From the IMG/VR virus record IMGVR_UViG_3300005826_000023: a stretch of 44,907 nucleotides of DNA, one strand, 5' to 3'. The notes under the pieces are model-generated. The model was not told where the DNA came from and ran no database searches. It saw nothing but the letters and a program-made list of their open reading frames with translations. Below, one piece after another: positions 121 to 44,907 of this stretch. Numbering within the stretch: position 1 is the stretch's first letter; each line of letters begins with the position of its first letter. The position numbers and the translations under genes are program-made. This DNA comes from a virus.

Positions 121-3100
121 CTCGCAATCGACCAGGAATTCATCCGGCAAAACCGGAAATTAATCGGTCGGTCAGTGGCAGACACGCTTATCGAGAATGT
201 GGCGGCTGATGCTGCCATCGCTGCCACCATGCACTCTAGCGACTTCCTGTTTCCGGATGAAATGTCGCTCATGGACCACGCGCTTTTCTTCGGCGGCACC
301 AATGCTATCTTTGGCGTGGCAGCCCTGGCTCATGCCAATTTTGTCCTCAAGCGGGGTATTCAGCAAGCGGCTGGCTCGGTCACAAAGGATGCTACCAATC
401 CGGGCAAAATACCCTTCGTCGATATTCAGGCGCAAATCTCCGGGGACAGGCACGCGGCGCTGACCTGGTTGGCGCATTATCGCGAGGATATTGCAGAACA
501 AGCGACGGCGGTTCGGCAAGCCCAGGATGAACTCTCCGTTTCTGCTACGCAAAGTGCTGATTCTGCCACTGCACAACGCATGAAGGACGTCATTGTCAAA
601 ATCGGCAGTGACTCTCCGCATACGGATATCACGCGCAGTTACGATATGTCTGCGGATGGCCCCGCGGTTAACACCATCCGTGAGGTGCTACGCAACGACC
701 CGAGTGCTGCATCTGGCGCCACGTCGTTTGAGGATTTTGCGACTCGTTCAGCGGCATCCGTGAATATTGCCATCGACACGCGCATGGCTGAGTTGAAGGC
801 TACACTCTCGGATATATCTGCGGAAATGACCGCGTTAACAAAACAGAACGAGCGCGGCTCGCGGAAGTTCACGAAGTTGCGGCAACAAGCCAGCAAAACG
901 CAGGCGGAGTTGGCTACAGTTTCGCAGTTGACGACAACGCTGTTTGAGATTGACGGCTCTACCTCAGTCACGCGTACACGTGCAGCCATCTTTCAGGATG
1001 GCGAACGCAAGATTGCACAGCTGCCTGACAAACAGGCGCTCATCCGCGTTAGCGGTCATGAGGTGACAATTTCGGAAACTGGTGCTGTCGAGATTCCCAT
1101 TACGCACATTCCCGAAGGGCTGACGCAGCGGAATCCAGCGCTAGAGGCCATCAAATACAGCCAGCCCGATGTCAACAAATCGCTGAATGTCCGTAACGCC
1201 AACGAACTTCGGCAGAAACTGCGTGGTGTTTTGGCCAGTCTACCCGTCACGCCAGAAGTCAAAGCCTTCCAGTCGCAGATTAAAGAACCGTCCTTCGTCG
1301 GCTATGTCATTGACGAGTTCGATTCGTTGGCATCCATGACGCCAACGGATAACTTCCGCATTCCCGTGACAATTGCTCGTGAGCAGGCATACGGTTTGGA
1401 TGCGAAGGGTCGTTTGCTTTTCCAGCCGCGTGGCCGGCAGTCAATGGATGGCGGGGCTTTCATTGCGCTTGACCACGAGGCCAAGACTGCCGTTTGGGAT
1501 GGACTGCAATCGCACATCGACCGAGTTACGCCCGAGACGTTTCCGGTAGGACTCAGCGTGCGCAGCTCGGACCACTTCACGAAGTTGGATTATCTTGAAG
1601 AGCTTGCCGCCAAATTTGGAGACGAGCGCCTCGCTAGAGAATTGTCCGACAGTATTGATAGCGTTGATGACATTCGCTACCTCAGCCTGAGCAAGAAGTT
1701 CGATGCCTATCAGCAACTTCGCAATATGGCCGATGAAGCCCATTTACGCGGCGAGGAGCGCCATATCTATGGCAACCTCGATAATGTGGCACGCGCGCTG
1801 AACCTGCCGCGAGATAATCACCCGTTGCTGACTTTCTTTGAGTCGCAACGCGTGGATGGCATAACTGTCAAGCTCGAATCACTTGCGAAGAACATGGAGG
1901 AACTGCGTGTTCGGTTGCGCCAGTATGTGGACCCACTAGAAAGCGATGGTCCGTTCGTCGGCACTACCACTGGTACCATGCTGCAAATGGCGCGGAATCG
2001 CAAGCCGATTCTTGGCGTCATGCGCATGGATATGGTGTCAATGGGTGCAGACCGTAGCGATTTGCTGCAGTACACCATGCGCCAACGTGCGACAGTGATG
2101 GAGAAACTCAAGCAGTCCACGCGAACAGGCGCGCGTCTGGTTCCCGCTATTGCCACGATGGCCGAACAGCAGCCCGCTATCATCAAGGCGGCAAAAGATG
2201 GCATCCAGAAACTCGTCCACGGTACGCTACTTGGTAGCAAATTGACGTCCGGCTTCGTGACGCAGGCATTCCGGCTGCGTGAAATGCCAGGTGCGCGGGC
2301 CATCGACCAGGCTACGGATTTGTTACAGAAGGTTGGCGAAAAGCAGATGGAACATTTGCTGCAATCGCCGAACTCGATGACACGTAGTCGGGCGAATCCC
2401 GCCGGTCTTAGCCATCAGCAAGTTATCAATCGCCTCATCGACGGCAATCATAGGGCCGACTTGTTGTCGTTTTCTGTTGCGCGTAATGCCATGGGCGCTG
2501 GTTGGGAACTTGCCGAAGCCGTGCCATACACAGCCGATGGAAAAACTGTCTACCAGTTCGAGCTGAAAGATTCCGTGACGAATCGGCGTATCTGGCGCGA
2601 AATGTTTGGCACGGACATGCCCGCGATTGACAAGAATAACAAGGTGTTCATGCCGATAACCGGGCGTCCTGTAACATACGGCGCTACTGAAACGGCATTT
2701 CATGCCATCTCGACAGTGGATGAAATCTCACAGGCGCTGTTGGCCGAATCGAATGCTCTACGCGTGGCGAAAGGTTTGCGGCCGATGCAGCACAAGCGTT
2801 GGCATATGCCGGCTCGCGTGCTGGAATCGAAGGAACTCGTCTATCTGCTTGATTCGGCGCAAAATGTGAAAACTGTCGTGGGCGGTGCTACGCCAAAGCA
2901 AGCGCTCGCCCGTGCACAGAAGGAAATCGACGAAGCCAAGCGCAACGGTGTCTTTCTGACGAAGGTTAATCAGCAGGATATAGCGCGCTACTATGACGCT
3001 AAGCTGGAAGCCTTCTTTGATATGAAGGACTTTAGCCGCCCGTGGGCGCAGACAGGGCCATCGAAAGGCAAATCGTTTGGCGAGGTTACGGAAACGGGCC

Positions 3101-12560: not shown

Positions 12561-12591
12561 AAAAAGACCGGGTGCCAACTGACACCCGGTC
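12561..12591 (-). terminator. Rho-independent terminator after the DUF669-like gene
   Basis: Minus strand reads GACCGGGTG-tcagttgg-CACCCGGTC followed by TTTTTAT. Confidence 0.8.
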
Positions 12592-12607
12592 CTCCGCAAT
12601 TAGCGGA

Positions 12608-13219
12608 TTACTTCCTGCCGCCGATTGCCAATCCGCCACTGCGAGCAGGCGTAGCCGGAGTTGCAGCCGCACCGGCGGAGGCGACTCCGACAGCCGCTGA
12701 GACCACGGCAGGTCGAATCTTCTGCGGGTCCAGGTTGGCATATACCTTGTCCGGGTCATCCTTATCCCGGCGATGCTTGATGCCGCCTTTGAACTCGATT
12801 TTCGATTCACCGAACTGCCGCATCAGTTGCAGGAACGTGCCCTTCCCCTGGAAACCGGCATCCTGCATGAGTGCCACCATTTGGCCGACGCTCTTGTCCA
12901 GGTCGAAAATCATGATTCGCTCCTGGTGAACCTCGCCGATGTAATCGGCCGGATTCAGCGTCTTGTCCTGGAGCGCTTCCACCGCCAGGCATTCGAGCGT
13001 CACCGACATGACAGCACGCTTTCCGCTCTTGGTGTCTTGCGTGCTCAGGTCGGAACTCTGCACACGCCAGTGGAACATCCCGACGGGAAACTGCGTATAG
13101 CCACGCCACGGGTCGACATCGGAAATATCCAGCTCTGCCAGCTCGGCAAGAGTTGCCAACTGGTCATCGCCAATCAGCACGTCCTCCAATGCCATTTCTT
13201 CTGCGGTCATTTCATTCAT
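12608..13219 (-). CDS. DUF669-like protein, putative ssDNA-binding partner of the AAA_24 ATPase, 203 aa
   Basis: ATG at 13219 has GGAGAG 6 nt upstream; the ORF-track start at 13237 is a TTG. The FPVGMFHWRVQSS...SGKRAVMSVTLE pattern and the position near the ATPase fit DUF669. Followed by its own terminator. Confidence 0.6.
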   Translation of the reverse strand: MNEMTAEEMALEDVLIGDDQLATLAELAELDISDVDPWRGYTQFPVGMFHWRVQSSDLSTQDTKSGKRAVMSVTLECLAVEALQDKTLNPADYIGEVHQERIMIFDLDKSVGQMVALMQDAGFQGKGTFLQLMRQFGESKIEFKGGIKHRRDKDDPDKVYANLDPQKIRPAVVSAAVGVASAGAAATPATPARSGGLAIGGRK

Positions 13220-16797: not shown

Positions 16798-17351
16798 TAG
16801 CCAAAATCCAAGTCATCGATGTTCATCTCCGCAGCAAGCTTAGCGCTCTCTTCTTGGCGCTTCGTCCTGGCCACCTTGTTGGCCGTTTTCTTGCCAACTA
16901 CCAGACCGGCGCTTTTAGCGCACGCTCGCACTAGCAGGCCGATATCCTCCGGCCGTAGCATGTCCGCGAGTCTTGGGTGCCCGCGCAGGAACGTCATAGC
17001 GCGATGCACATTGGTGGAAACTTGGTCGCTGTCGATGTTGGCCGACAACTCTTGCAGCGTATGGCGCAATTCCTCCATCGCTGCTTGCAACGTCTCAGAT
17101 GTATCTGGCAGTTGGCCCGGTTCAACAACTAACTCGCCAAGTGCCTTGGCTACTACTTCGGGTTCCTGCGATTTGGGTAAGGGTTTGGCAGGTATAGTCG
17201 CAGGCGCGGAGCCCGCGGTAATTGGAATTTCGCCTTTTGTGCGTGCCATCTCTTGCTTCAGCATTTCTGTAATACTGGTACTGGATGGCTGTTCTGCCGG
17301 TTTCGGTAAGGCGTTGGCAGACCGCGTCTTTATCTTGGACAAAAGACTCAT
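16797..17351 (-). CDS. Hypothetical protein ending in an acidic/aromatic tail (NIDDLDFG), 184 aa
   Basis: ORF is coupled at both ends by ATGA and TAATG overlaps. Confidence 0.7.
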   Translation of the reverse strand: MSLLSKIKTRSANALPKPAEQPSSTSITEMLKQEMARTKGEIPITAGSAPATIPAKPLPKSQEPEVVAKALGELVVEPGQLPDTSETLQAAMEELRHTLQELSANIDSDQVSTNVHRAMTFLRGHPRLADMLRPEDIGLLVRACAKSAGLVVGKKTANKVARTKRQEESAKLAAEMNIDDLDFG

Positions 17352-17926
17352 ATGGAAATCTCGTCAAAGATGCGCGTCAGCTCCCGCATCAGTTTGAATT
17401 CGGCACCCGTCTTTTGCAGATAGACCGTAGTGACGGTAACTGTGCCGTCGGCGTCTTGCACGTTGCGCTCGTCCAGTTTGACTACAAGCATACGGAATGG
17501 CACTGGCGTCTGCTTGTAGTGCTCGCGCACCAATTGACGCAAGCGCGAAAGCTCGACGCGCATTCTGTGTACCTGCGCACGGGCCTCTTGCTCCGTGCCG
17601 TAGTACTCGAATGACCACGCAACATCTTGCTTCGCCTCCTTTAAGAAACGAAGCAACGTTGTTTTGGCCCTGTCGTTTACGCGCACAATTACTTCTCGGT
17701 TGTTGGCAAGAACTTGCGGCACTTTGGGCAAGTTATGAGACTTGACACTAGCGACAGGCCGTCGCTCCAACTGGCACGTTCCATTCGTTCTTTCTGGGTA
17801 AAGATGCCAGGCGCCGTCAGCAGCACGGCCGCTTGTCTGCCTGTGCATTTTGGCCGATGGTCCGTCTCCGACATCGGTAGATGAATCACTGGTGGCGCGT
17901 TGTTCATCTGTTGCGTGCCTCTTCAT
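17348..17926 (-). CDS. Hypothetical protein, first gene after the 18-kb terminator, 192 aa
   Basis: ATG at 17926 has a weak GGAAAG RBS. The ORF-track start at 17941 is a TTG. Confidence 0.65.
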   Translation of the reverse strand: MKRHATDEQRATSDSSTDVGDGPSAKMHRQTSGRAADGAWHLYPERTNGTCQLERRPVASVKSHNLPKVPQVLANNREVIVRVNDRAKTTLLRFLKEAKQDVAWSFEYYGTEQEARAQVHRMRVELSRLRQLVREHYKQTPVPFRMLVVKLDERNVQDADGTVTVTTVYLQKTGAEFKLMRELTRIFDEISI

Positions 17927-17986
17927 ATTTGCGCTTTCCAAGTTTCGACGACACGGCGGTACTCCTAACGTTTATAACAGCAGTTG

Positions 17987-18021
17987 GCAAAAAAGAAGGG
18001 GCGGTTTTTACACACGCCCCT
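17987..18021 (-). terminator. Rho-independent terminator
   Basis: Minus strand reads AGGGGCG-tgtgtaaaaac-CGCCCCT followed by TCTTTTTTG. Confidence 0.85.
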
Positions 18022-18136
18022 AAGTGGGGGTCTGCCAACTCCCGGAGATAAGGCGGGGTCAATCACACCCATTTATCAGCCACTGGCGCCTATACACTTC
18101 CCAACATTAACCAGTGGCGAGTGTGACCGACCCCGT
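17989..18136 (-). ncRNA. Candidate roughly 148-nt structured non-coding RNA or leader, running from the 18143-18171 promoter to the 17987-18021 terminator
   Basis: No ORF on this strand. A 15-bp outer stem (18135-18121 with 18068-18054) includes two G.U pairs that would be A.C mismatches on the other strand. An 8-bp inner stem pairs 18118-18111 with 18086-18079. Confidence 0.55.
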
Positions 18137-18142
18137 GTTTTT

Positions 18143-18171
18143 AGTATAGCACAGTCCACGCTAAATGTCAA
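18143..18171 (-). promoter_or_regulatory. Consensus sigma70-type promoter TTGACA-N17-TATACT
   Basis: Minus strand has TTGACA at 18171-18166, a 17-nt spacer and TATACT at 18148-18143. The hexamers and spacing match the promoter at 24884-24912. Confidence 0.75.
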
Positions 18172-18380
18172 TAACGCGACTGATTATCGGTTCTCTGTTG
18201 CCAGGCCGCGCACCAGCCATCTTTGGCAACGATTGGGTACGCGACATGCACGAACAGCGGCACGAGACTGGCCACTTCATCCGCTGTCGCTGGCGTCGGT
18301 GTGGTCGACACACGTATGCACACGCAGTAACCCGCAAGTGCCCGACTCCAGCGACAGGTTTGGCATATGTGGCGACTCAT
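18168..18380 (-). CDS. Possible small Cys-rich protein, 70 aa, coupled to the transglycosylase gene
   Basis: ATGA overlap with the SLT gene stop. The stop codon lies inside the -35 hexamer of the next promoter. No recognisable signal peptide. Confidence 0.4.
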   Translation of the reverse strand: MSRHICQTCRWSRALAGYCVCIRVSTTPTPATADEVASLVPLFVHVAYPIVAKDGWCAAWQQRTDNQSRY

Positions 18381-18946
18381 TCCGGCACCTGGATGCAGGC
18401 GAGGTCCCAATTGCGGTCCCAACGCTGCTGGATTTCCCCGCGCTCCGCGGAATCGCCATTTGTATAGGCACCTGGACGCCAAGCATCTATGTACTGCAAG
18501 AAGGCGTTACGCGGTTGTGTTTTGGTCGGTAGAGATAGCGGTAACGTCCACAGCAGTAGACGCGCAAAGACGGCAGCCAGCACCGCATCGTATGGCAACG
18601 CGTCATAGATAAGCGCGTCCCAGCTTTTGCACTCGTCATCCTGCGGCGTTAAGGTGCGCACTGGCTGCCGCATTTTTGCTAGCACGTTATAATCTAGTAT
18701 CTGCAACGCATCCTTTGCGAATGTGGCTGTCGCAGGGTGTCGCAATACGCCACGGATGCCGCCATTAAGCTCAAACTGCCAGTAGCCAACGGCCGGGCCT
18801 TGGCGCTGCACGCGATATTTGGCCAGTGATTCCTGCCAGGCAATTGCCACGAGCATCCGTGTTGCATCTGGCGTGTTCATCCTCTGCGGCAGGATGCTGT
18901 ACGCCGGTTTAATTGCCAGCTCGATGATGCGACTAGTTGGAATCAT
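18377..18946 (-). CDS. Lytic transglycosylase (SLT-domain) endolysin candidate, 189 aa
   Basis: AIAWQES ... GYWQF matches the SLT catalytic Glu-Ser and GLMQ-like motif. Met23 of the ORF is preferred because it has a GGAGC RBS. Confidence 0.75.
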   Translation of the reverse strand: MIPTSRIIELAIKPAYSILPQRMNTPDATRMLVAIAWQESLAKYRVQRQGPAVGYWQFELNGGIRGVLRHPATATFAKDALQILDYNVLAKMRQPVRTLTPQDDECKSWDALIYDALPYDAVLAAVFARLLLWTLPLSLPTKTQPRNAFLQYIDAWRPGAYTNGDSAERGEIQQRWDRNWDLACIQVPE

Positions 18947-19202
18947 GATTGTTGCTCCGGTAGCGGTAGCGGTAGACGTAACCACGCGAGGAACGGCAGT
19001 TGGCACAGCCACTTGTGAGCGTTTTGCCGTTATCGTTTACCTCGACTCTGCCCGTGCCCTTGCAAACAGGGCAAAGTACGCAAACTGCGGTACCGTGCAT
19101 TTCTGTCGGACTGATATAGTCCGCGGAATCAGCCTCCTCGTTGCCCAACATTGCGGCAAACAGGCGCTCGTTCTTTGTCAAATAACAATCTTGCTTTGAC
19201 AT
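18933..19202 (-). CDS. DnaJ-type zinc-finger protein (CPVCKGTG ... CANC), 89 aa
   Basis: Contains a CxxCxGxG motif plus a second CxxC. Confidence 0.65.
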   Translation of the reverse strand: MSKQDCYLTKNERLFAAMLGNEEADSADYISPTEMHGTAVCVLCPVCKGTGRVEVNDNGKTLTSGCANCRSSRGYVYRYRYRSNNHDSN

Positions 19203-19432
19203 TACTCTTCCTCCAGATTACCTACCAAGTGCCATGCGACAAGGCTACCAAGTGCCAGTCCCACGGCGACACCCGCGCTGATTATGGCGCCCAGCAATAG
19301 CGTTTCTTCGCGGAGCAGAAAGGCGCCGACTAAGGAGAACACACCAAGTGCCGCTACGCTCATGGCCCAGTTGCCAAGGCGTACCGCTAGTTGGTACATT
19401 ACTATCATGTACCGTGTTTGGGCGTTTGTCAT
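19202..19432 (-). CDS. Two-TM membrane protein, holin candidate, 76 aa
   Basis: Two hydrophobic helices (WAMSVAALGVFSLVGAFLL and LLLGAIISAGVAVGLALGSLVAW) and a charged C-terminus, EEE. It lies two genes upstream of the SLT gene. Confidence 0.6.
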   Translation of the reverse strand: MTNAQTRYMIVMYQLAVRLGNWAMSVAALGVFSLVGAFLLREETLLLGAIISAGVAVGLALGSLVAWHLVGNLEEE

Positions 19433-19647
19433 ATGCCGACGGTCCTGTCGTAAAGCTGACGCTCCAGCCTGTCGACGTATGTTGCGACGTCATCCGGCGT
19501 GTATCCCATTCCGTCAAAGGATAATATAGCTTGCGCCATATTTGCCAGTACCACGTACCTATCGGCAGCGGTAATAGTCGGCCGCTGTATATTTGCCAGT
19601 TTTTGCAAATCATCTAGTGCGTCGCGAAGTGACACATTCGTCGCCAT
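19429..19647 (-). CDS. Hypothetical protein, 72 aa
   Basis: Internal ATG with a GAGGAG RBS. ATGA coupling to the next gene. Confidence 0.65.
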   Translation of the reverse strand: MATNVSLRDALDDLQKLANIQRPTITAADRYVVLANMAQAILSFDGMGYTPDDVATYVDRLERQLYDRTVGI

Positions 19648-19651
19648 GACC

Positions 19652-20203
19652 TTACTCCTCGTTACACAGATACACCTGGACATTCGCGTAGATGCTGAAG
19701 GCCCGCTCTTGATATGGAATATCGCCCGTCTTTATGTGCTGTTTGTCGCCGATGGATTCTGCTACTAGTGCCCGTGCTCGCATACACGGCAGACAGTACA
19801 CATCTGGCACGCGGATTAAAGCGTCACGTTCTAGATAGCTATAGCATATCGCTTCGCCACAGTCGCGACAGTGGAAAGGTGTGGCCTTGTAGCCTTGCAT
19901 TAGTGAATCCTTTTGTCGGGCGGCATCAGATTGGCATCGGCTATCGCCACGAAAGTGCGAAACTCGTCCACGGTCGTGCAATACCAGCATCGAATCATCC
20001 CGCAGTGGCATCAAGAAGATTGGCCGTGGACATACGTCGCATGTTGCAACTTCTGGCCACGCTTCCACCATGTCCTCGCGCAGCACAGTTGAACCGCCAA
20101 ACATGTATTCATACACGGCATCGTCAAGTGCCACTTGGTCACCTTCCATTGCATCGCGAAGAGCGACCAATGCTGCGCGATGTTTTTCTGCGAGTGTTTG
20201 CAT
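19652..20203 (-). CDS. Cys-rich hypothetical protein, 183 aa
   Basis: AGGAGG RBS. Cys pairs CDVC, CRDC and CLPC. Confidence 0.7.
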   Translation of the reverse strand: MQTLAEKHRAALVALRDAMEGDQVALDDAVYEYMFGGSTVLREDMVEAWPEVATCDVCPRPIFLMPLRDDSMLVLHDRGRVSHFRGDSRCQSDAARQKDSLMQGYKATPFHCRDCGEAICYSYLERDALIRVPDVYCLPCMRARALVAESIGDKQHIKTGDIPYQERAFSIYANVQVYLCNEE

Positions 20204-23076: not shown

Positions 23077-24290
23077 GATTTGTTCTCCGTGCGGCCGATG
23101 CGCAGTTTGAATCCGGCGGCAGGCTGCAATTTCAGCGACTCCGACAGTTTGCGCGTGGGTGGGTGGCTTTGTGTGATTGCGGGCTTGACGGCCGCATTGG
23201 CGCCCTCAAAGATACGGCCGGAGAATTGCGGTATTGACGTGGGAGCAGCGGCCGCCTTGCCGTTACCTTTGGGCGGCTTTTCGGCAAAAAGCCCCTTGTC
23301 GAGATACATACTGTAGCTCGACTCGTCGCCATCGCCGAAGTCTAGTTCTGCCAAGTCCAGCCACGCCGCTTCATCGGCCGACCCGGCATCGTTCCGGGCC
23401 TGTTTATGGAATAGCGACAGGCCGCCTAGCTCGACATGGGTTTGGCCGATAACGGCTAACGTAATTTGTGCGCGGTCGCATAGTTCGTCACGATATGCGG
23501 CATACCGCCGCTTGGCCGTTTGCGTGACCATGCTGCGAATTCGGGAAACGAGCACGTCGGCCAGCGCGAGGAAGGGATTATCTGCCAATCGGCCGGCAAT
23601 GAGCGCGCCAGCGGTCGGCAATGCTGGCGCAAAACGAGAGTTCAAATCGGGATTGCATAACCCGAGATGGCGCCGGAGCAACTCATTGCATAGCATGATA
23701 TCCTGAATGCGGCAGGCGCCCACTTCCAAGGCCTCTACTATGCCCTGCCACAGTCGGCGCCGCTCTTCCCGCAACTCCCACGTGACAGACTGGGCGCGGG
23801 CCAAATTGCCAAATTCCAGCCGCGTCCAGGAGTATACGAAATACCCTACCGGGTCCAGTTTGCGCAAATTGGACAGCGTATCCGGCCCGGTTTCAGACCA
23901 TAAAGGCGAGTATTCACCCAACGCCGTGCATCGCAGCAAACTCGCGGCTGTCTCTGCGCCATGTATGCGCAACATGTCGGCGAGCGTGCGCGGCTGGCGG
24001 GTGCCATATGGAGCACCCGTCTTGACGCAATATAGCGTGGCAAAATCCGCCAACTGGTCAGTGTCTACCAACGCTTCGATTGACCGCGCGTGGACGTGTG
24101 CCATATTGTTCAGCGTTACGCTGTCAATCTGACACATGCGACGCACTATGTCGTCGCATCTATCAATAACGGTAGCATACTTCCGTGTGCGGCGGCGTTG
24201 GCGTTGCCGTTGTGCATCCTCTTTTCGTTCTATCATTGCAATCTCCGGGTTACGCGGATAATGGCAAATCATCCGCGGGGAATAAGCCAT
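23073..24290 (-). CDS. Hypothetical protein, first gene of the leftward operon, up to 405 aa
   Basis: Long ORF. The alternative start ATG 24236 has GGAG 8 nt upstream. No motif recognised. Confidence 0.7.
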   Translation of the reverse strand: MAYSPRMICHYPRNPEIAMIERKEDAQRQRQRRRTRKYATVIDRCDDIVRRMCQIDSVTLNNMAHVHARSIEALVDTDQLADFATLYCVKTGAPYGTRQPRTLADMLRIHGAETAASLLRCTALGEYSPLWSETGPDTLSNLRKLDPVGYFVYSWTRLEFGNLARAQSVTWELREERRRLWQGIVEALEVGACRIQDIMLCNELLRRHLGLCNPDLNSRFAPALPTAGALIAGRLADNPFLALADVLVSRIRSMVTQTAKRRYAAYRDELCDRAQITLAVIGQTHVELGGLSLFHKQARNDAGSADEAAWLDLAELDFGDGDESSYSMYLDKGLFAEKPPKGNGKAAAAPTSIPQFSGRIFEGANAAVKPAITQSHPPTRKLSESLKLQPAAGFKLRIGRTENKS

Positions 24291-24335: not shown

Positions 24336-24364
24336 AGTATATCACAGGCCGCGACAAAAAACAA
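24336..24364 (-). promoter_or_regulatory. Leftward promoter: TTGTTT-N17-TATACT with an extended -10 (TGaTATACT)
   Basis: Minus strand reads ggggTTGTTTtttgtcgcggcctgTGaTATACT. It sits about 45 nt upstream of ATG 24290. Confidence 0.65.
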
Positions 24365-24883
24365 CCCCCATGCAGCGATTTGGCAATCGGCTACGCGCGC
24401 TTGAGCAGCGGCGGTTTGGCGGGTTGGTGGCTGGCGATTAGGCCGGTGGTCGCTGGCTGGTGGTCGATGGCGGCTGCCGTTGCCAAACGGGATGATTCCT
24501 AACATAACAATTTCTAACAGAAACGGCCGGCCGGCGCCCTCCCATACCCCTATCCCTCGGAGGGGCTAAAATGGTCCTTAATTGCCAATAGGCACTCCCG
24601 CCAAGGGTAACCTGGTCAACCCTTATAGCCCCTCAACAAAATGCAATCAAATTATACTCAATTGGCAACGGGTGGGGTAGCGTACGCTGGCATGGACTAG
24701 TGCCAATAGGCGAGCAGAATGACCGTCTGGGAGACAAGGGTGCTGCGGTGGCCCCCGGAAGGGTCGATGTTATTTACTGTTATGTTATGTTACTCACGCA
24801 TTGGCATTACTCGTTAGCATGTAACCGTCTTACGCTGGCAACAACCCGCGGACTACGCACATCTGGAAAACGTCTATTATCGC

Positions 24884-24912
24884 TTGACACGGCCCGCGAT
24901 TGGCGCTATACT
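24884..24912 (+). promoter_or_regulatory. Rightward early promoter TTGACA-N17-TATACT
   Basis: TTGACA at 24884-24889, 17-nt spacer, TATACT at 24907-24912. Confidence 0.8.
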
Positions 24913-44377: not shown

Positions 44378-44907
44378 TGGAAACGCTTGACAACGGCTTT
44401 AATGCCGCTTTCCAGTTCCATCCCGCGGACCAACGGTTGTTGGATATGCGTGGGTACAACCCAGTGGCAGCTTTCGATGAGAGCACCACTGAGTTAATGG
44501 GCGCGCAATTTCAAATGTACGAGAAGCAGCGTAGCTGGCTAGAAAGCGCTGGCTATTTGCTACCAGGGGTATTGCTCTCTGCAATTGACACCTTCGCCGA
44601 ATCGTTTGGTCTCATTGACGATGCGACGATGGAAAATGCGCTCAAGGAGAAATTCCCAGATTTCGGCGATTACTTCAGCGACAATCGGGCTGTCCTCGGT
44701 GCCGTTGGCGATATCGGCGGCGCCTTCGTCCCCGGTATGCTAGCTGTCAAAGCTGTGCGCACGACAGGTGTCATCGGGAAACTGGCCACTCGTGTATTCG
44801 GCGATAAGGCCGCTCCGTTCCTTTCAACGGGCCAGACCAACGCCAAACTTTTCGAGGAAGCCTATCAACGTTCGCGCGTCCTGGCCAGCAAACCCCAGGT
44901 GCGTAAC
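44377..44907 (+). CDS. N-terminal 177 codons of the giant 1,828-aa internal virion protein; continues at base 121 of the window
   Basis: The ATG shares one base with the upstream TAA (TAATG). The frame stays open to the window end and through the 120-bp overlap into 1..5076. Confidence 0.8.
   Translation, partial: METLDNGFNAAFQFHPADQRLLDMRGYNPVAAFDESTTELMGAQFQMYEKQRSWLESAGYLLPGVLLSAIDTFAESFGLIDDATMENALKEKFPDFGDYFSDNRAVLGAVGDIGGAFVPGMLAVKAVRTTGVIGKLATRVFGDKAAPFLSTGQTNAKLFEEAYQRSRVLASKPQVRN
44788..44907. repeat. Terminal redundancy copy 2, identical to 1..120
   Basis: Compared base by base: 120/120 identical. Confidence 0.95.

Follow-up and report, generated by a model that had tools for sequence, protein, structure and literature searches.

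We suggest that the minus-strand interval from 18171 to 17987 of the window (the whole stretch of phage DNA analyzed, 44,907 nt) carries a lineage-specific, structured 5' leader, which lies behind a conserved promoter (P2) and ends in a strong intrinsic terminator (T1), acting as an attenuator and as the source of a short RNA; we hold this reading at about even confidence. The first-pass annotation had proposed either a discrete small RNA or a downstream operon that depends on read-through, and every sequence feature that it listed was confirmed at the coordinates given. Both are probably true, as two outputs of one promoter, because the promoter that precedes the RNA is the operon promoter in relatives.

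The window, whose first and last 120 nt are identical, represents a complete phage genome of ~44.8 kb. The minus-strand genes span 24290 to 5166 and include early genes, a RecD/Dda-like helicase, small accessory genes, a PD-(D/E)XK exonuclease and a Sak4-like annealing protein, together with DNA polymerase I, a dNMP kinase, a pyrophosphatase and a primase; the terminase and structural genes are on the plus strand. No RNA polymerase or sigma factor was detected among the phage proteins scanned. Among cultured phages, Polaromonas phage Tiera and the Pseudomonas 119X/PaP2 group come closest, with a Pol I identity of only ~28%. The same phage is represented in other samples by five more contigs, at 99.9-100% identity; of these, L001 and L077 alone span the RNA, both with 100% identity across it, and the three further contigs stop short. 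The Columbia River estuary sediment metagenome is the source of one contig of this phage (PMC6848030). It is present in JGI samples 3300021351, 3300021346, 3300022384 and 3300005828 and in SRR7090821.

P2 is located at 18143-18171 on the minus strand, with the -35 hexamer TTGACA at 18171-18166, a 17-nt spacer and the -10 hexamer TATACT at 18148-18143, as annotated previously. It matches the consensus at 11 of 12 positions, carries in addition a TG extension at 18151-18150 (-15/-14) and conforms to a sigma70-type promoter with the predicted +1 at ~18136-18138; by these features it is predicted to be very strong. The identity of its hexamers and spacing to those of the rightward promoter at 24884-24912(+), also reported in the first-pass annotation, was confirmed. 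In the 12 kb scanned no other site reaches 11/12 matches, the chance expectation being, by our own arithmetic, ~0.6 such sites per whole 44.9 kb. A design common to the two promoters was considered and rejected: the leader following 24884(+) is not unusually structured (z = 0.5), so a structured leader is not the general design of this phage.

The -35 hexamer of P2 contains the TGA stop of g70, an uncalled 70-aa ORF (18168-18380, minus strand) whose ATG overlaps the stop codon of the upstream 211-aa gene (ATGA). The g70 frame has a weak coding signal at 18288-18240, and searches with queries minus the first 10 residues gave no Pfam match and no credible homologue, only low-complexity matches. 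The candidate role of g70 as a Q-like or Ogr-like factor was rejected on the lack of a Pfam match to the same shortened queries. Homologues of the upstream gene, g211, adjoin tail genes in quite different contexts and have no such RNA nearby.

We retrieved 16 related loci via the neighbouring proteins (L002, L003 and L004-L017; 15 distinct loci, L005 being the same stretch as L003) and added L080 later. The loci have in common a syntenic block consisting of the helicase, variable small genes, a CxxC zinc-finger gene, the g192 homologue, g184, the exonuclease, g229 and Sak4; the zinc-finger homologue in the window is g183 (19652-20203; E = 3e-6). The region upstream of the g192 homologue is contained in 11 relatives, and a sigma70 promoter was detected immediately upstream of this gene in nine of them. 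In eight (L002, L004, L006, L007, L009, L014, L015 and L017) the pattern TTGACW-N14-TGNTANNNT is found at the syntenic site, once per locus and always before the g192 homologue, and its one single match in the 44.9-kb window is P2 at 18171. The promoter hexamers of L015 are identical to those of P2, the spacer motif AACTnTG recurs in most of the relatives' promoters, and the TGA stop of the upstream gene lies inside the -35 hexamer in L004, L006 and L014 as it does in the window. L080, the closest relative, has TTGACT-17-TATTAT before the g192 homologue, without the TG. The promoter-bearing relatives have 30-43% exonuclease identity and differ in G+C; the contig with the closest exonuclease (43% identical) has the promoter and no RNA. 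Since the same pattern occupies the same syntenic site in relatives, P2 appears to be the orthologous, positionally conserved promoter of the recombination operon, in the order g192-g184-exonuclease-Sak4.

Judged by the spacing between the -10 and the start codon, the relatives' leaders are 0-76 nt long, two of them looking leaderless, and no hairpin or terminator was found in these leaders. The promoter in relatives thus adjoins the first gene, which suggests that the RNA and T1 are a lineage-specific addition in the operon 5' leader. The element and the ~280 nt that follow it are absent from all 11 relatives, and the window carries ~2 kb of additional genes upstream of P2 besides this insertion downstream of it. 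The element does not correspond to a moron (an autonomous promoter-gene-terminator insert), as the promoter is conserved and is not part of the insert. A promoter-plus-terminator pair at 11482-11577 of L004 was discarded, being inside the DNA polymerase gene. The first-pass annotation had named missing conservation of the stems in relatives as a result that would speak against it, and formally this is what was found, no relative having the element. We read the absence as a probable lineage-specific gain and not as disproof of function, because the nearest relative is distant (43% exonuclease identity).

The search for the RNA elsewhere gave no homologue. The Rfam scan proposed earlier was run on the whole window (Rfam 15) and returned no family at the gathering thresholds; the best permissive match was MmgR (RF00519), with 17.4 bits versus the gathering threshold of 41 (E = 0.68), over a generic 3' module only. 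ARAGORN detected no tRNA or tmRNA. The RNA had no match in a distant-setting blastn against 50,697 phage records, in blastn and nhmmer against the 16 related loci, or with a single-sequence covariance model against 19 sources. Exact-word probes, three against IMG/VR and one against GTDB genomes, returned nothing beyond chance matches of 15-31 nt. The predicted stems consequently rest on one sequence, as no homologue of the RNA was found and the contigs of the same phage are identical across it.

The 151-nt transcript 18137-17987(-) is predicted to fold at -68.8 kcal/mol, versus -50.3 +/- 4.0 for shuffled sequences (z = -4.6), and none of 200 shuffles was as stable. Its main feature is a long 5'-terminal hairpin of 82 nt and ~26 bp (18054-18135, minus strand; pair probabilities 0.95-0.99), which starts 0-3 nt from the predicted +1. 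The lower stem has 17 bp (18135-18119 with 18070-18054), and the upper stem of 9 bp (18118-18110 with 18087-18079) is stacked on it; an 8-nt bulge is present on the 3' side only (18078-18071, UGAUAAAU), and the apical region comprises 22 nt (18109-18088). This is essentially the structure annotated before as stems of 15 bp and 8 bp with a 24-nt loop. The strand asymmetry claimed earlier also holds: the hairpin energy is -45.5 kcal/mol on the transcribed strand versus -33.9 on the complement, a difference of 11.6 kcal/mol that is due to four wobble pairs (G10.U77, G11.U76, U18.G69 and U28.G51), where two had been counted.

The transcript appears to be non-coding, in agreement with the first annotation: a codon-position Markov model, trained on the phage's own long genes, detected no coding signal in any frame from ~18216 to ~17720. 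The sole ORF within the transcript (35 codons, ATG at 18072) has no Shine-Dalgarno sequence and runs through the terminator, and it does not qualify as a small-protein gene. The hairpin is followed by a C/U-rich linker, CCUUAUCUCC (18044-18053, minus strand), which is predicted to be single-stranded, being unpaired in both the MFE and the centroid structures. An anti-Shine-Dalgarno role had been proposed for this linker, and it found no phage target above background: when the linker, the apical loop and the internal loop were each paired with 137 phage translation-initiation regions, the duplex energies did not surpass the tail obtained for random windows of the genome.

T1 (17989-18021, minus strand) has the features of an intrinsic terminator, as annotated. 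The stem-loop at 18021-17997 has seven G/C-rich pairs plus two (AGGGGCG...CGCCCCU; -15.6 kcal/mol, pair probabilities >0.99) and is followed by the U-tract UCUUUUUU at 17996-17989; with no T-run on the other strand, T1 should be unidirectional. The predicted short transcript would extend from +1 at ~18136 to a 3' end at ~17989, that is ~147-150 nt. Between the linker and T1 there is a small hairpin A of 18 nt (GGGAGUUGGCAGACCCCC, 18026-18043, minus strand). The C-run of hairpin A can also pair with the G-run of T1 (CCCC:GGGG), giving an antiterminator-like alternative, hairpin B, into which transcript prefixes of 126-132 nt are predicted to fold. Three overlapping hairpins are thus predicted (GGGAG...CCCCC, CCCC:GGGG, and GGGGCG:CGCCCC with the U-tract), and the terminator form is the default, the best structure without T1 having -60.7 kcal/mol versus -68.8 with it (~8 kcal/mol worse). 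The set would have the geometry of an attenuator, with the caveat that the alternative pairings are built from runs of G and of C, and energy models pair such runs promiscuously. T1 is in addition bracketed by an inverted repeat on the minus strand, AGUUGGCA (18040-18033) and UGCCAACU (17989-17982), which in a 498-nt fold forms a helix of 8-10 bp around T1; this pairing is possible solely in the read-through RNA.

Downstream of T1 no promoter with at least 9/12 matches was detected. The finding that P2 is the orthologous promoter of the downstream block in relatives strengthens the earlier statement that this block lacks one of its own; the statement needs the qualification that one weak extended -10-like site, TGtTATAAA (17971-17979, minus strand), lies beyond T1, lacking a -35 and the T at -7. 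Under relaxed rules this is the only promoter candidate between T1 and the conserved core of g192. The replication/recombination block had been placed ~60 nt beyond the terminator, and in our analysis the conserved core begins only at about GTG 17686. The ~280 nt in between (17687-17966, minus strand) have no clear coding signal. They contain AGGAG (17966-17962), a GTG at 17954 that starts a 16-codon ORF, and an ATGA junction to a 72-codon ORF (17907-17689); alternatively they encode the N-terminal 80 codons of the called 192-aa ORF (ATG 17926). Plausible start codons after T1 are therefore at 17954, 17926 and 17686. No homologues of the N-terminal extension of g192 were found, and the g192 proteins of relatives align from about residue 80 onward only. 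A gene remnant in 18400-17680 was rejected, tblastx against all loci being empty.

The conserved g192 core (17348-17686, minus strand) is the first gene of the operon and encodes 112 aa from GTG 17686, with the motif HRMRVELSRLR. No Pfam, PHROG or PDB sequence match was found for g192; the AF2 model has pLDDT 82, and its sole fold similarity is weak and Alba/SpoVS-like.

In the mechanism that we propose, the host RNA polymerase would start in vivo at ~18136 and transcribe the ~26-bp hairpin at the very 5' end, and then the C-rich linker and hairpin A. By default transcription would stop at T1, releasing the RNA of ~147-150 nt. A 5'-terminal stem-loop with few unpaired nucleotides stabilizes E. 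coli RNAs, as in the ompA leader. The short RNA is predicted to be very stable, as the stem-loop would protect its 5' end and the terminator hairpin, with its U tail, the 3' end. The operon (g192, g184, the PD-(D/E)XK exonuclease, Sak4 and onward) would be fed by the polymerases that read through T1, since nothing with at least 9/12 matches is present downstream of it. The read-through fraction may be a constitutive leak or may be modulated via the competing CCCC:GGGG pairing. On this view the element would work as an attenuator close to the promoter and as a transcriptional insulator, besides being the source of a 5'UTR-derived short RNA. A terminator this strong before presumably essential genes is awkward, unless the read-through is substantial or a promoter was overlooked; TGtTATAAA might be such a promoter.

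The closest documented kind of element is the 5'UTR terminators of virulent Pseudomonas phages. ONT-cappable-seq of six Pseudomonas phages detected 42 terminators inside 5'UTRs, and 34 of these have a dominant transcript <250 nt plus a long one (PMC10914365). Of the 29 ncRNA candidates listed in that study, two are in LUZ24 and one is upstream of the PAK_P3 primase/helicase gene (PMC10914365). The window element resembles them in the promoter followed by a terminator within 250 nt in a 5'UTR, one of those candidates also being upstream of a replication gene. The distance from start to terminator here is ~148 nt, inside the ~250 nt that defines 5'UTR premature termination, an assignment made at the sequence level. 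The Pseudomonas phage RNAs have short and long transcripts sharing a 5' end, whereas our element is predicted from the genome sequence. LUZ24, which counts among the closest relatives of this phage in culture, is a podovirus that has sigma70-type promoters and relies on the RNA polymerase of its host. The Pseudomonas candidates appear to be conserved in sequence, with PAK_P3 and YuA cited as within-genus examples (PMC10914365); unlike them, the window element is absent from every relative found, and it has no sequence or covariance-model similarity to anything retrieved. The element also resembles the classical attenuators (1:2, 2:3 and 3:4 hairpins) in its three overlapping hairpins with the terminator form as default, and differs from them in that it lacks a leader peptide, T-box, known riboswitch aptamer or known protein-binding repeats. 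There is a resemblance in shape only to the RNase III hairpins of T7 early mRNA (a long hairpin with an asymmetric internal loop) and to the ompA-type 5' stabilizing stem-loops (a stem beginning no more than ~3 nt from the 5' end).

The element, if it acts as we propose, does not open a new class, as promoter-proximal terminators that yield short RNAs have already been mapped by dozens in Pseudomonas phages. The most useful addition comes from the comparison, namely the conserved promoter with a lineage-specific leader. It would be a natural experiment, in which an operon promoter is conserved across a deep phage clade and a structured leader with a terminator has been gained by one lineage, potentially showing how attenuation evolves in phages and how small RNAs arise from 5' leaders. 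The consensus promoter, 5' stabilizing hairpin and strong terminator together could also be a compact, portable part for expression control.

It is possible, and in our view unlikely, that the element is instead a stand-alone gene for a trans-acting phage sRNA, in which case T1 would stop essentially all P2 transcripts and the operon would use another promoter. Such an RNA may act through the C/U-rich linker or the loops on host or phage mRNAs, or by titration of an RNA-binding protein, for example Hfq, CsrA/RsmA or RNase III. Phage sRNAs that act on the host have been described, and the layout is of the enterobacterial type: a structured body, an unpaired C-rich segment and a Rho-independent terminator that ends in a long U tail. 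GGA-containing motifs are seen in the apical loop and at 18043-18039, and the weak TGtTATAAA just past T1 would be the alternative promoter. The only Rfam similarity is to an sRNA: MmgR, like the element, has a small hairpin, C-rich sequence that is single-stranded and a terminator whose U tail is long, although this weak match is confined to the generic 3' module and falls below the gathering threshold. The orthology of P2 argues against an sRNA gene of this kind, as the operon would have lost its conserved promoter, and the site that would replace it lacks the -35 and the -7 T. The RNA is, moreover, not conserved, and its linker and loops pair with phage translation-initiation regions no better than with random genome windows.

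That the RNA has no dedicated function seems quite improbable to us. The insertion would then be neutral or selfish, or the terminator would have been acquired for the upstream early/lysis unit, with the short RNA as a by-product. This is consistent with the absence of the element and of the ~280 nt after it from 11/11 relatives, with the lack of a homologue anywhere searched, and with the inverted repeat around T1. The site is also in the hypervariable stretch from the helicase to g192, in which relatives have different accessory genes. The wobble pairs, however, favour the transcribed strand by 11.6 kcal/mol, and the predicted 5' end coincides with the start of the hairpin, which directly follows one of the two strongest promoters in the genome. 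Insulation of the operon from the upstream unit would, furthermore, call for a terminator ahead of P2 rather than behind it.

We consider it very unlikely that the element is a checkpoint for processive antitermination like lambda PR'-6S-tR'/Q, N-nut or HK022 put, the alternative raised in the first-pass annotation. P2 polymerases would pass both T1 and a second terminator, T2, owing to a phage protein or to the nascent hairpin, while the upstream early/lysis transcripts would stop at T1. The layout is lambda-like, with a strong sigma70 promoter, a short terminated RNA (~150 nt versus 194 nt in lambda) and a long promoterless operon; both T1 and T2 lie inside the 12.8-kb arm with no visible promoters after either, and a structured RNA emerges ahead of the first terminator, as in put. 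In contrast to lambda, no Q-family protein was found among the ORFs scanned, the element precedes recombination/replication genes and not late genes, and it is not conserved. Neither Q, N nor another antiterminator family was detected with Pfam/PHROGs in the ORFs scanned, including the upstream ORFs g405, g236, g183, g84, g76, g89, g211 and g70 (Pfam and/or PHROGs), a scan that very divergent proteins could escape. By eye, boxA, boxB and ops-like motifs are absent, and the early transcribed region has only a weak 3/6 -10-like hexamer, CACACT, at ~+17 to +22. The analogy is unsupported: besides the scan for antiterminators, which found none, the shape is not that of put and no Rfam family matched.

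We give least credence to the idea that the 5' hairpin works in cis like put, or binds a phage protein not yet recognised, and so lets only P2 polymerases pass T1 and T2: in put, two adjacent stem-loops of ~65-70 nt in total follow the promoter and affect RNA polymerase in cis, and the element, although it too would be a structured nascent RNA between a promoter and the first terminator for which cis action is possible in principle, has a single 82-nt 5' hairpin plus an 18-nt hairpin, no sequence similarity to HK022 putL/putR and not the two-stem shape. Such a device would have the whole 12.8-kb replication arm transcribed while transcripts from the upstream early/lysis unit are halted at T1, and it would be a new, lineage-specific RNA-based form of processive antitermination in a virulent podovirus-like phage.

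T2 (12561-12608, minus strand; -21.7 kcal/mol) is located ~1 kb after Sak4 and closes the recombination module. Its position is conserved, equivalents being detected in L002 (15637-15684), L004 (10408-10455) and L007 (9679-9726). These relatives have the T2-like terminator without the leader RNA, so that passage of T2 there needs no such element, which argues further against a checkpoint role. In the window and L004, the two genomes inspected by eye, T2 is directly followed by genes with no visible promoter, so that read-through of intrinsic terminators seems to be usual in this group of phages.

The word TTGCCAA/TTGGCAA was considered as an operator common to the element and the main control region and was dropped, as it is a coding-sequence word genome-wide; it is over-represented in the genome.

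The two ends of the window form an exact 120-nt direct repeat (1-120 identical to 44788-44907), and the window is therefore a complete phage genome of ~44.8 kb, circularly closed or terminally redundant.

The public call of g192, the first gene of the recombination operon (192 aa, ATG at 17926), is probably too long. The g192 proteins of the relatives, with lengths of 109-146 aa, align from the GTG at 17686, and no coding signal was detected in the first 80 codons of the called 192-aa ORF. An alternative chain can be read in 17686-17966 (minus strand), in which AGGAG-N7-GTG at 17954 opens a frame of 16 codons, followed through an ATGA junction by a 72-codon ORF, whose TAA lies two bases before the GTG at 17686. 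The g192 gene (17348-17686, minus strand) and its homologues represent an uncharacterised protein family with the invariant RV-LSR-R motif (alignment A4). The AlphaFold model of g192 (pLDDT 82) has the topology helix-strand-helix-strand-strand-helix; the fold search detected only weak matches, to Alba and SpoVS-like nucleic-acid-binding proteins (E ~0.08, TM 0.34-0.50), and other similar small DNA-binding proteins reached TM values up to 0.58.

In two related loci, L006 (5073-5110) and L014 (5088-5125), just 6 nt separate the end of the -10 element of the conserved promoter from the start codon (ATG) of the g192 homologue, which implies that the g192-homologue mRNAs of both phages would be leaderless.

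The window carries additional genes at 18377-19683 (minus strand), which are located between its zinc-finger gene and P2, the conserved sigma70 promoter of the recombination operon, and look like a lysis cassette within the early arm. Judged by eye, g76 (19202-19432) appears to encode a protein with two transmembrane segments, and the related loci L011 and L016 have, at the equivalent place, a protein that likewise by eye appears GH108-like. The g211 gene (18377-19012, minus strand) belongs to phrog_3108, and its homologues in other phages follow tail genes and adjoin small ORFs. The g211 stop codon overlaps, as ATGA, the start of g70, an uncalled 70-codon ORF (MSRHICQTCRW..., 18168-18380, minus strand) with a weak coding signal, for which a search for homologues found none. 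The g70 TGA stop sits within the -35 element of P2, and a stop codon is placed in the same way in L004, L006, and L014.

The strong intrinsic terminator T2 (12561-12608, minus strand) has a conserved position in the clade, ~0.85-1 kb after the gene for the annealing protein Sak4, and its equivalents were located in L002 (15637-15684), L004 (10408-10455), and L007 (9679-9726). Inspection by eye of the window and L004 showed that T2 is directly followed by genes, with the DNA polymerase further downstream, and no promoter was visible between T2 and the following genes in these two sequences.

A candidate promoter, TTGTTT-17-TGaTATACT, was read from the sequence at 24336-24364 (minus strand) and is likely the leftward early promoter; it scores below the threshold of the promoter scanner. 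It lies a short distance before the first leftward gene, whose ATG is at 24290, and has the TATACT -10 element in common with both consensus promoters.

The heptamers TTGCCAA and TTGGCAA occur in 41 copies throughout the window genome vs. ~5 expected from the base composition (for instance, at 17984, 18223, 24380, 24480, 24582, and 24662), mainly within genes and with a strand bias according to the genome arm. Codon context, a binding site or another cause could account for this excess. The divergent control region contains two copies of TGCCAATAGGC, at 24583 and 24701, and a single copy of the short GTTAT tandem TGTTATGTTATGT (24778-24790, plus strand). The tandem is also present once in the closest relative, L080, between the first early gene and the helicase (1647-1659, minus strand), and ~0.02 matches of this type would be expected by chance in the window.
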